Virus record (IMG/VR): IMGVR_UViG_3300033417_000006
Coordinates: 4,281 to 68,280 of that record
DNA: 64,000 nucleotides
Strand: one strand, 5' to 3'
Origin: a virus
Lineage: Duplodnaviria > Caudoviricetes
Shown: positions 4,120 through 7,724 of the stretch, in pieces
Layout of the letters: every line of letters begins with the position of its first letter
How positions within the stretch are numbered: the stretch's first letter is position 1
Made by a program: the position numbers and the translations under genes
The notes under the pieces: model-generated
Seen by the model: the letters and a program-made list of their open reading frames with translations, nothing else
Databases searched by the model: none
Told to the model about the DNA's origin: nothing

Positions 4120-4310
4120 ACTTTTTTTGCCAGTCGTTGTCTGATAACCTCGACGGCCTCCTCGCGCGAATCCGCCACGAATGGCGGTACGACCTCAACT
4201 ACGAAATCGTTTCCGTAGCAGTCCTCGGTATAGTCTTTGTGATCGCCAAACCACCGCTTCACTTGGATGCTTCCATTTTGATGCAGGTATCCCCACCACA
4301 TTATGTTCAT
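4116..4310 (-). CDS. Hypothetical phage protein
   Basis: SD-like AAAGGAA upstream; stop overlaps next start. Confidence 0.55.
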   Translation of the reverse strand: MNIMWWGYLHQNGSIQVKRWFGDHKDYTEDCYGNDFVVEVVPPFVADSREEAVEVIRQRLAKKV

Positions 4311-5578: not shown

Positions 5579-5763
5579 TTCGTTTCCTTCTCCAACCCTT
5601 CGCGCAGGTTGCGTATGATGCGCTCGGCCAGATCGTAAACATCGTTGCGCAGTTCGTCGGCCAATGATCGGCTCTTGAGCGCGGGTTCCCAATGCTTAAC
5701 GTGCGCGTCGATCAGTTCCGAGATTCGTCGTGTGCCGGGTGTTATTGGAGTGCCGTTTGTCAT
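5575..5763 (-). CDS. Hypothetical protein
   Basis: ATGA-coupled on both sides. Confidence 0.5.
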   Translation of the reverse strand: MTNGTPITPGTRRISELIDAHVKHWEPALKSRSLADELRNDVYDLAERIIRNLREGLEKETK

Positions 5764-7028
5764 GTTTCAATAGCGGGCGCGTACTGTTCCGCGTCGAGAT
5801 TAAATGTCCACGCTACGGCTTGTCTAGCAGTCCGCATCCCAGGCGGGACTCGCAAAACATAATTTTTGAACGAGCCATCTGGTTCTGGTGTACTATTGAT
5901 AACCTCGACGAAACACACATCCTCTCGACCGTCTGGGAAGTGGCGCCGGAATAGTGCCCCGAAATCGTCAGAGTGAATCAGTGTCGATCCACTTTCTTTA
6001 ATCCATCGCTGGCGTCCAAACTTCTCAATCATCACCCTGCGAATTTCAGCATTGTTTTCGCTGTCGATGTTCGCGACGCTAATTTCGACGGGACGCTCCA
6101 CGATCCATGACGGTAGCCGAACTCCATGTGAAGCGTAAATTGACCAACCGTCCGGGTATTGGACGGCGGGGCCAGTCTCACAATGCAGTCTGCCCTGGTC
6201 GTCTCGTTTTAACGTGGTATGCCGCTCAGCAACCCAACATATTTTTTCGTGTAGCAACCACCAACCAGCGGACTGCGCGACACGAAGAATGCCACAGAGC
6301 TTGTTAGTTTCTGTATCGAGCGCCGCCGCGACTCTGAAAAAATCATAAAAGGACAACCAGCCGGCATCATGTTGCCCACACACGCTGGCCCACACGCTGT
6401 CCCACACGCTGTCCCTCACGCTGTCCCTCACGCTGGCCCACACGCTGTCCCTCACGCTGTCCCCCACGCTGTCCCTCACGCTGTCCCTCACGCTGGCCCC
6501 CACGCTGTCCCTCACGCTGGCCCACACGCTGTCCCCCACGCTGGCCATCACGCTGTCCCCCACGCTGTCCCTCACGCTGGCCCACACGCTGTCCCTCACG
6601 CTGGCCCACACGCTGTCCCTCACGCTGTCCCTCACGCTGGCCCCCACGCTGGCCATCACGCTGTCCCACACGCTGTCCCTCACGCTGGCCATCACGCTGT
6701 CCCCCACGCTGTCCCACACGCTGGCCATCACGCTGGCCCACACGCTGTCCATCACGCTGGCCCCCACGCTGGCCCTCACGCTGGCCGCGATCTGTAGGCC
6801 TGACTTTTCCAAGTTGAATACTAAGGCCCTGGTGAGTCCTTGCGCCAACGGGGAACCACACCAGACGATCATCGGTTTCTCCAAACCTGCAACATGGTAG
6901 GCTTCGGTAATACCAATTTCTGCTTCCCGTCGGTTAGCAGGCTCGGTCGATAGTCCAATCTGCGTCCATTTCTGGACGAACTCTGGAAATCTGGCGATCT
7001 GTTCTTTTGTAAGCGATTTAATTTTCAT
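5760..7028 (-). CDS. DUF6745-like phage protein with a tetrapeptide repeat
   Basis: (W/R/G/M)(A/D)SV repeats, then GQHDAGWLSFYDFF, LHCETGPAVQYPDGW, NAEIRRVMIE, VINSTPEPDGS, YVLRVPP. Confidence 0.8.
   Translation of the reverse strand: MKIKSLTKEQIARFPEFVQKWTQIGLSTEPANRREAEIGITEAYHVAGLEKPMIVWCGSPLAQGLTRALVFNLEKSGLQIAASVRASVGASVMDSVWASVMASVWDSVGDSVMASVRDSVWDSVMASVGASVRDSVRDSVWASVRDSVWASVRDSVGDSVMASVGDSVWASVRDSVGASVRDSVRDSVGDSVRDSVWASVRDSVRDSVWDSVWASVCGQHDAGWLSFYDFFRVAAALDTETNKLCGILRVAQSAGWWLLHEKICWVAERHTTLKRDDQGRLHCETGPAVQYPDGWSIYASHGVRLPSWIVERPVEISVANIDSENNAEIRRVMIEKFGRQRWIKESGSTLIHSDDFGALFRRHFPDGREDVCFVEVINSTPEPDGSFKNYVLRVPPGMRTARQAVAWTFNLDAEQYAPAIET
6381..6788. repeat. Tandem array of 34 x 12-bp units inside the DUF6745-like gene
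   Basis: Unit cacgctg(g/t)cc(ca/ct/cc/at) repeated contiguously. Confidence 0.95.
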
Positions 7029-7370: not shown

Positions 7371-7724
7371 TCATGGTTTCCTTTCCAAGGTTATCTCCGT
7401 TCTTTCCTCGCCTCTCGTCGCGACTTTGACTTGCTGGACCGCGTATTCGGTGACGATGGCCGGGTTATCGTCGGGAATGACACCGGCGTACCGCAATCCG
7501 TCAACGTGGAATTTCCCGGCCAAATTGTCGATGTCGCATAATCGCCGCCGATAGCTGACAACGACAATCCGATAGCGCGGTGAATTCGATCTCGGAGTCG
7601 CTTTCGTTCCCAGTGGTTCATCGCGAACAGCCGGTTGAGGCTCGGCACGGGTTCCCGTACGATGATCCTTAAGCATCCGCCTTGAGATATAAGCTTGGTA
7701 ATCATGAACGCTCCAGCGTGGCAT
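7371..7724 (-). CDS. rusA: RusA-like Holliday junction resolvase, catalytic C-terminal half
   Basis: RRRLCDIDNLAGKFHVDGLRYAGVIPDD; GGAGG SD and TGATG coupling at 7724. Confidence 0.75.
   Translation of the reverse strand: MPRWSVHDYQAYISRRMLKDHRTGTRAEPQPAVRDEPLGTKATPRSNSPRYRIVVVSYRRRLCDIDNLAGKFHVDGLRYAGVIPDDNPAIVTEYAVQQVKVATRGEERTEITLERKP
7391..7705 (-). CDS. Overlapping ORF carrying a RusA-like N-terminal half
   Basis: LRIIVREPVPSLNRLFAMNHWERKRLRDRIHRAI resembles the RusA N-terminus; GGAG upstream of its ATG. Confidence 0.5.
   Translation of the reverse strand: MITKLISQGGCLRIIVREPVPSLNRLFAMNHWERKRLRDRIHRAIGLSLSAIGGDYATSTIWPGNSTLTDCGTPVSFPTITRPSSPNTRSSKSKSRREARKERR

Follow-up and report, generated by a model that had tools for sequence, protein, structure and literature searches.

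RusA of Escherichia coli, like Rus of the lambdoid phages, is made as one chain of about 120 amino acids (aa). Different frames of the same DNA are put to joint use by the lambda spanins Rz and Rz1, two cooperating phage proteins of which one gene is embedded in the other and each has its own start. A second way of combining two frames is programmed -1 frameshifting, which an internal Shine-Dalgarno (SD) sequence can stimulate, as in dnaX, and which the hexamer CGA AAG has been reported to support in Bacillus subtilis cdd. Here we analyze a locus in a 64,000-nucleotide (nt) stretch of a virus of the Caudoviricetes (Duplodnaviria; IMG/VR record IMGVR_UViG_3300033417_000006, positions 4,281 to 68,280), hereafter called the window, in which a RusA-like protein appears to be divided, its first ~50 residues and its last ~70 being encoded in two different, almost completely overlapping open reading frames (ORFs), named A and B (Table 1). 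A first-pass annotation of the window had suggested either programmed recoding or a heteromeric resolvase. The comparative evidence presented below favours two chains over a programmed -1 frameshift, and we hold it moderately likely that A and B are separately translated, complementary chains. The wider proposal – that a phage family of single origin keeps one enzyme fold as two chains in overlapping frames of about 350 nt, which reassemble into an active resolvase – seems to us only just on the probable side. The layout has apparently not been described so far: our search of the literature found no account of a split or frameshifted RusA.

The start codon of ORF A lies 19 nt downstream of that of ORF B, and the codons of B begin one base 5' of those of A; passing from A to B needs a -1 shift, as the first-pass annotation had stated. 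It had also pointed to SD-like sequences in front of both start codons, and these are present as GGAGG before B and GGAG before A. The ATG of ORF B overlaps the TGA (7726-7724) of an upstream ORF (8194-7724). Translation of ORF A gives a protein of ~12 kDa that contains CLRIIVREPVPSLNRLFAMNHWERKRLRDRIHRAIGLSLSAIGG, a region also given as LRIIVREPVPSLNRLFAMNHWERKRLRDRIHRAIGLSLSAIGG, followed by a Ser/Thr/Pro-rich stretch with a basic end; its first ~52 residues would comprise beta1 and a full-length alpha1. ORF B, of ~13.5 kDa, reads MPRWSVHDYQAYISRR, continues with a Pro/Gly/charged stretch, and then runs from RYRIVVVSYRRRLCDIDNLAGKFHVDGLRYAGVIPDDNP to EERTEITLERKP. The tail of ORF A, including its basic end, is the out-of-frame shadow of the B core.

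This arrangement recurs far beyond the window. The locus set was assembled by scanning viral, genome and metagenome contigs, followed by a hidden Markov model (HMM) scan of all three forward frames. In all seven of the first metagenomic homologues of ORF B, the N-terminal motif was found in frame B+1, and a tblastn search of phage records returned BK063671.1, the genome of a member of the Caudoviricetes (host on record: Methanomicrobiales), with 35% identity and the same two frames. Altogether, 75 viral or metagenomic loci with a strong B match were obtained, from independent samples and with 35-60% protein identity; all of them carry the A motif in the frame that gives B = A-1. The spacing between the Pro codon of the A motif PSLN and the first bases of beta2 in B is usually 71 nt, with 68, 77 or 83 nt at a few loci, and always equals 2 mod 3. 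The only split locus from the genome contig scan belongs to a metagenome-assembled genome (MAG) of the Verrucomicrobiota. A continuous polypeptide holding both beta1-alpha1 and the catalytic half, as is characteristic of the RusA family, occurs neither in the window nor at the other 74 loci. Based on these comparisons, we take the split rusA-like locus to be a real architecture, well beyond what chance would give, and not an error. As a side observation, one locus (L060, contig ERZ1292637.83426) has early stops in both frames, at +101 in B and +129 in A (relative to the PSLN Pro codon); decay of this copy or a low-coverage sequencing error may be the cause.

The family is also visible in protein collections, almost solely through its B half. 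When 1.84 billion cluster representatives were searched exhaustively with a profile, 3603 proteins of the B type were recovered with a threshold of E<=1e-3, and 1406 with one of E<=1e-10. None of the 19 B-type representatives inspected, and none of the seven first-round homologues, contains an in-frame RusA N-terminus. Nearly all inspected B-type proteins possess a PEPxVRxEpLG-like linker, which is the frame-B reading of the A motif PSLNxLFxMNHW; three short ORFs begin downstream of this linker. With the A profile, a collection of 5.8 billion protein clusters gave two called A-type ORFs, and the one that was traced to a contig again overlaps a B ORF. A word-index search with ORF A alone returned no matches. 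On the wider proposal, the A chain would be a hidden protein, overlooked by gene callers in almost every case. The nearest clusters in the ESM Atlas come from viruses and are labelled 'hypothetical protein'.

Selection was analyzed for 40 representatives with less than 80% nucleotide identity; positions are offsets (+ or -) relative to the PSLN Pro codon (7645-7643 in the window), and conserved residues with synonymous variation were taken as the coding signature. According to synonymous fractions and conservation, frame A is under purifying selection up to the end of its helix, and frame B from the start of beta2 onwards, including the acidic and basic residues of its core (Table 1). Residues P21 and N24 of ORF A are invariant, S22 and L49 nearly so. 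The two selected stretches meet in a short zone in which the end of the A helix and the beginning of the B strand are written in the same bases, and the constraints of each frame can be read in the other. Third-codon positions +73 and +85 of B are T in 32 of 34 and 31 of 34 loci, which is abnormal for codons of Ile, Val and Leu; they hold T because they are the second bases of Leu TTR codons of A. The near-invariant Leu at +84 is Leu49 of ORF A (7561-7559). In turn, the third positions +68, +77 and +80 of A are frozen by the Arg and Val codons of B. Since the A helix end and the beta2 start of B occupy the same bases, one -1-shifted chain could hold only one of them. In the shadow half of each of the two proteins, stops are avoided, the sequence is unconserved, and AlphaFold2 predicts disorder. 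Aligning homologous loci for dual-frame conservation was a check named in the first-pass annotation; the two-frame layout recurs at the 75 loci, and 19 nt are under double constraint.

Furthermore, both frames stay open to a degree that codon usage does not account for. In this analysis, synonymous codons of the real frame were resampled and stops were counted in the other frame. Across the A core, frame B is open in 40 of 40 representatives, with 12.9 expected under pooled codon usage and 25.7 under within-gene permutation (Poisson-binomial P = 1.6e-21 and 9e-12, respectively, with representatives treated as independent). Frame A is open to +237 in 29 of 40, with 6.6 and 14.6 expected under the two models (P = 2.7e-16 and 1.4e-9, on the same assumption of independence); in 11 of the 40 lineages the A tail ends early, at +150 to +225. 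A frameshift model does not require open frames past the shift site.

The two ORFs also have separate starts. In most loci, the ATG of ORF A is located 27-105 nt upstream of PSLN, and in nearly all loci a start codon for ORF B (ATG or GTG) precedes the same motif by 16-196 nt. The order of the starts is lineage-dependent: B comes first in some lineages, including the window, and A in others. ORF B begins with a peptide of the form W-[TS]-x-E-Q-[YL]-x-x-Y-x-x-R-R, which lies upstream of A's start and which, in 15 non-redundant loci, is conserved at the protein level with synonymous variation in frame B; in a number of these loci frame A contains stops across this stretch. The conserved peptide together with the frame-A stops argues that translation of ORF B has a start of its own and does not depend solely on entry from A. 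The pair hence shows what is expected of overlapping genes, i.e. a start signal for each ORF, two open frames, and purifying selection in each of them. An internal start for B just before beta2 was considered and rejected, as there is no conserved ATG, GTG or TTG between +32 and +77.

Table 1. Position of the two overlapping ORFs, their parts and associated signals in the window; + and - offsets are relative to the Pro codon of PSLN.
Feature	Position	Strand	Remarks
ORF B	7724-7371	minus	117 aa; ATG 7724-7722; stop 7373-7371, inside span
ORF A	7705-7391	minus	104 aa; ATG 7705-7703; stop 7393-7391, inside span
Parts of ORF B	7371..7724	minus	N-terminal helix; linker (out-of-frame shadow of A core); RusA catalytic half, beta2-alpha2-beta3-beta4
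Parts of ORF A	7391..7705	minus	RusA-like beta1 and helix alpha1 (residues ~11-52), then disordered Ser/Thr-rich tail
N-terminal helix of ORF B	7665..7709	minus	residues 6-20; motif W-[TS]-x-[EDH]-[QED]-[YL]-x-x-Y-x-x-R-R
Frame-A purifying selection	7559..7672	minus	-27 to +86; from synonymous fractions and conservation
Frame-B purifying selection	7374..7577	minus	from +68; residues R50-P117, including D64, D66, K71, D75, D86
Dually constrained zone	7559..7577	minus	19 nt; end of A helix (...AIGLSL) and start of B beta2 (RYRIVV)
GGAGG, Shine-Dalgarno of ORF B	7733-7729	minus	4 nt 5' of ATG 7724
GGAG, SD-like, of ORF A	7714-7711	minus	5 nt 5' of ATG 7705; within ORF B codons 4-5
CGA AAG hexamer	7606-7601	minus	in frame A

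Pfam gave no match for ORF A or ORF B even at E<=1, nor for the neighbouring genes. RusA-like families of PHROG match ORF B (phrog_34, E 6.4e-8; phrog_1682, E 1.5e-7); the PHROG search with A-frame ORFs gave nothing relevant, and in a sequence search of the PDB neither the A nor the B profile retrieved RusA. The AlphaFold2 model of ORF B, built with 58 homologues, has a mean predicted local distance difference test score (pLDDT) of 83.9, exceeding 90 for residues 50-117, and consists of a helix (residues 6-20, pLDDT 80-86), a coil (21-49), a strand (50-59), a second helix (65-79) and two further strands (91-100 and 108-116). E. coli RusA is the top PDB match of this model in Foldseek, with a probability of 0.97-1.0 and a root-mean-square deviation (rmsd) of 2.4 A over ~70 columns. 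VIA-align to the E. coli RusA structures gives Z scores of 6.4, 6.0 and 5.9 at an rmsd of 2.1-2.3 A, and the next-ranked, unrelated folds score Z 4.2; in the best alignment, model residues 48-117 lie on residues 52-118 of 1Q8R_B (Z 6.4, rmsd 2.2 A, 66 aligned residues, 24% identity). The model indicates that ORF B is RusA from beta2 to the end, without roughly its first 50 residues. The alpha/beta fold of RusA is accordingly recovered for the C-terminal two thirds only, that is, in ORF B. The first-pass description of frame B as an unrelated-looking N-terminus followed by a RusA catalytic half is confirmed. Among the 58 ORF B sequences, no variation is seen at D64, K71, D75, R78 and D86, and hardly any at D66 and N67. 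D64, D66, K71 and D86 are in register with the catalytic residues of RusA, D70, D72, K76 and D91 (E. coli numbering), and from the modelled superposition we infer a residue-by-residue match of these acidic and basic positions. In several lineages, ORF B extends ~15-50 residues beyond the RusA core (e.g. with EVEYPSERSMQHILDRLHSS); in these loci (L029, L030, L032, L033-L037, L071, L073, L075, L079-L083) its stop lies at +308 to +419, and ORF A ends at the usual place.

The missing segment can be followed with the help of continuous relatives. Eleven loci with weak B matches turned out to be ordinary continuous RusA-like genes, with ~25 more residues between the two motifs. The single-frame relatives considered here (L039, L042-L044, L046, L047, L078 and L084) originate from phages and MAGs of the Bacillota. 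Pfam PF05866 matches four of these eight weakly, with a best E of 5.5e-5; the score of one member, 20.7 bits, is under the curated cut-off of 22.8. They share with the split family the motifs PP[ST]LN..MHW, RRRD.DN, KFLLDGLRYAG and P.R.EI. From HW to beta2 they have ~29 residues, whereas the nucleotide distance in the split family corresponds to only ~13 codons. An hhalign comparison of the A alignment with the single-frame relatives gives a probability of 89.9% (E 1.7e-6) over A residues 9-48. The A profile maps to residues 16-53 of the L039 protein, i.e. to beta1-alpha1, and the B profile to residues 51-134 of the same protein, with a probability of 98.6% (E 1e-15). Modelled alone with AlphaFold2, ORF A shows a strand (residues 11-14), a long helix (31-55) and a disordered tail, with pLDDT values of 88-96 between residues 21 and 50; Foldseek found no fold match for this model, as expected for a fragment. 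By these profile alignments, the conserved part of ORF A would be exactly the beta1-alpha1 segment of RusA that ORF B lacks, in agreement with the first-pass proposal that frame A encodes a RusA-like N-terminus.

We therefore propose the following arrangement for the two-chain explanation. One mRNA would carry two nearly co-extensive overlapping genes, each translated from its own start. The strand and helix of A would pack on the three-stranded sheet and helix of B, completing one RusA-like fold, and the assembly of A and B would probably be an A2B2 equivalent of the RusA homodimer. The rebuilt enzyme would resolve Holliday junctions or branched DNA in phage replication and recombination. At related loci, the neighbouring genes encode a primase, an SNF2 helicase or a methylase, which is consistent with a function in the replication and recombination of phage DNA. 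The data show how the two ORFs are laid out and how widely this recurs, with selection in each frame, starts for both and a RusA fold in B; that A and B bind each other, in what ratio and with what activity is inferred.

The alternative that survives best, and that we nevertheless regard as unlikely, is a programmed -1 frameshift. Translation would start at the ATG of A, slip near 7575-7560 or at CGA AAG, and finish in B; the product would be one RusA-like chain of ~100 aa, and full-length A and B would be by-products or extra isoforms. The hexamer CGA AAG is present in the window, as noted in the first-pass annotation, and has been described for -1 shifting in IS1222 in a reference within PMC10885494. 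At the level of the family, however, hardly any signal is shared. CGA AAG occurs in frame in 2 of the 40 representatives, and X XXY YYZ heptamers in frame A between +24 and +96 in only 4 of 40, so that no slippery site is conserved; homopolymer runs of at least six occur in 6 of 40. RNAalifold predicts no consensus pairs (0) for 30 loci between +55 and +150, and the window's own RNA fold is unremarkable (z -0.83). What does recur in many lineages is a purine-rich, AAGGAG-like tract that resembles an SD sequence, 15-25 nt upstream of the junction; the same tract also simply encodes the Lys/Glu face of the A helix. The 8-bp direct repeat GCTATCGG has copies at 7576-7569 and 7555-7548 (coding strand), just as the first-pass annotation reported; none of the other loci in the nucleotide alignment contains it. 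A role for this repeat was dropped because it is unconserved, and both the repeat and CGA AAG are judged incidental. Transcriptional slippage was dropped in view of the rarity of homopolymer runs. A double frameshift from B to A and back to B was likewise set aside: it needs two unsupported events and is inapplicable where A starts upstream of B.

The expected product of a frameshift is equally difficult to reconcile with the data. A join between HRAI and RIVVV would be ~15 residues short of the single-frame relatives, losing the last turns of alpha1 and the loop, and after a shift at CGA AAG nothing of alpha1 would be left. Selection in frame A runs 19 nt past the start of beta2 in B. Moreover, a frameshift leaves unexplained why frame B is open upstream, with a conserved start and start peptide, and why frame A is open downstream. 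Hence, of the two possibilities raised by the first-pass annotation, the heteromeric resolvase gains from the starts, the openness of the frames, the dually constrained junction and the B peptide, while recoding at CGA AAG finds no support.

Several observations weigh against two separate chains. The halves of a single-domain fold always stand in the -1 relation with nearly fixed spacing, which is equally expected of a recoding site, and no locus with A and B as separate, non-overlapping genes was found among our searches. SD-like signals precede the two starts in only ~14-15 of 38 loci. The P values for openness are overstated, the representatives being phylogenetically non-independent. Finally, the open A tail in 29 of 40 representatives is left unexplained by two chains, as a stop after alpha1 would seemingly be harmless. 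A basic stretch, strongly so, closes this tail in most lineages, and one may speculate that it binds DNA. It is the unexplained A tail and the lack of any lineage with separated genes that keep frameshifting under consideration, at the low probability given above.

Another alternative, which we rate as quite improbable, is that A and B are both translated and yet form no joint enzyme. B would be a self-sufficient, trimmed RusA-like nuclease whose N-terminal helix packs at the site of alpha1, and A, e.g., a small regulator or DNA-binding peptide. It is true that AlphaFold2 folds B alone with confidence, including the N-terminal helix, and the strongly basic end of the A tail would suit a DNA-binding peptide; but the high pLDDT of a fragment reflects the alignment and does not show that the fragment is stable by itself. 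The L017 group, L007 and L029 are without the N-terminal motif of B and still retain A. Some single-frame relatives carry an N-terminal extension in addition to beta1-alpha1, which indicates that the extension is no substitute for alpha1. The conserved part of A, moreover, coincides with precisely the RusA segment absent from B.

That the locus is a pseudogene or the product of an assembly or sequencing error, i.e. an ordinary rusA with a single-base indel, has a vanishingly small probability: an isolated one-base shift of frame in a small gene would usually be an error, but here the same break is found in the same place at 75 loci with both frames under selection, and one well-supported branch sets the split clade off from its continuous relatives, so that the comparative data already refute this reading. 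The first-pass annotation had named an assembly error or continuous homologues as fatal to its claim; the close homologues are all split, and only distant relatives are continuous.

In a tree built from the catalytic half, the split genes are set apart from the continuous ones by just one branch (support 100/99), which is compatible with one origin of the split. A possible scenario is an ancestral frame disruption that was rescued by fragment complementation and subsequently fixed. In the single-frame relatives that could be scored, the frames corresponding to the overlap are frequently closed: stops occur in the +1 frame of the C-terminal half in five of five, with 1-5 stops each, and in the -1 frame of the N-terminal half in three of five. 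Some continuous relatives (L042, L044 and L047) possess an N-terminal extension of the form MTRLS..Q/AR..G, and ORF B of one split sub-group (L004, L006 and L045) begins with MPRLSLDDVLAK. If this very short likeness reflected homology, the B frame would be ancestral and the beta1-alpha1 segment would have been thrown out of frame.

If the two-chain explanation is true, the family would be an ancient and widely distributed natural example of a single-domain enzyme maintained as complementing fragments in overlapping frames, and a model for the rescue and fixation of frame-disrupting mutations as well as for the reach of dual coding: ~300 nt are shared, of which 19 nt are selected in both frames. 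If the enzyme were made by recoding instead, this would be a frameshift without any known signal and equally notable. Annotation has a systematic blind spot here. Pipelines call ORF B only and label it hypothetical, so that both the resolvase function and the putative second protein are missed in many phage genomes. The family is widespread and unannotated; RusA-like resolvases and overlapping phage gene pairs are in themselves known kinds.

The stop of ORF B overlaps the ATG (as ATGA) of a 16-codon mini-ORF, MSDKQTINKKERYPCK (region 7374-7324, minus strand), which in turn overlaps the start, ATG 7333, of the following gene, a 100-aa ORF at 7333-7031 that belongs to phrog_27831 (unknown function); the succession of overlaps looks like a chain of translational coupling. 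Further along, a 422-aa ORF (5760-7028, minus strand) includes an array at 6381-6783 in which a 12-nt unit (plus strand: CACGCTGTCCCT) is repeated 33.6 times in tandem with 85% matches. In the protein, the array becomes a run of [DA]SV[WRMG] tetrapeptide repeats, flanked on the N- and C-terminal sides by sequence of ordinary protein appearance. Two other ORFs, of 142 and 164 aa and one on each strand, are also open across the array.

Compared with known systems, the split family stands closest in fold to E. coli RusA and the lambdoid phage Rus (PF05866; PDB 1Q8R, 2H8C and 2H8E), on whose C-terminal part ORF B superposes, and ORF A resembles the single-frame RusA-like relatives in its N-terminal strand and hW..R.K helix. 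Unlike the continuous RusA chain, the split family has its two halves in different frames, and the nucleotide distance between them is ~40 nt too short for one continuous polypeptide. With dnaX, the IS3-family transposases, the phage tail chaperone G/GT and B. subtilis cdd, the locus has in common the -1 relation and the fact that a fusion would make sense. Those systems, however, rely on a slippery site that is conserved, usually joined by a stimulatory SD or RNA structure, and none of these signals is conserved in the split RusA family; moreover, nothing in them requires the -1 frame to be open or to have an upstream start. The nearest architectural precedent known to us is lambda Rz/Rz1, which, like ORFs A and B, use different frames of the same DNA from their own starts. 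The differences from this precedent are twofold: Rz and Rz1 are unrelated proteins, whereas in ORFs A and B one ancestral single-domain fold would be divided into complementary halves, and A and B overlap over nearly their entire length.

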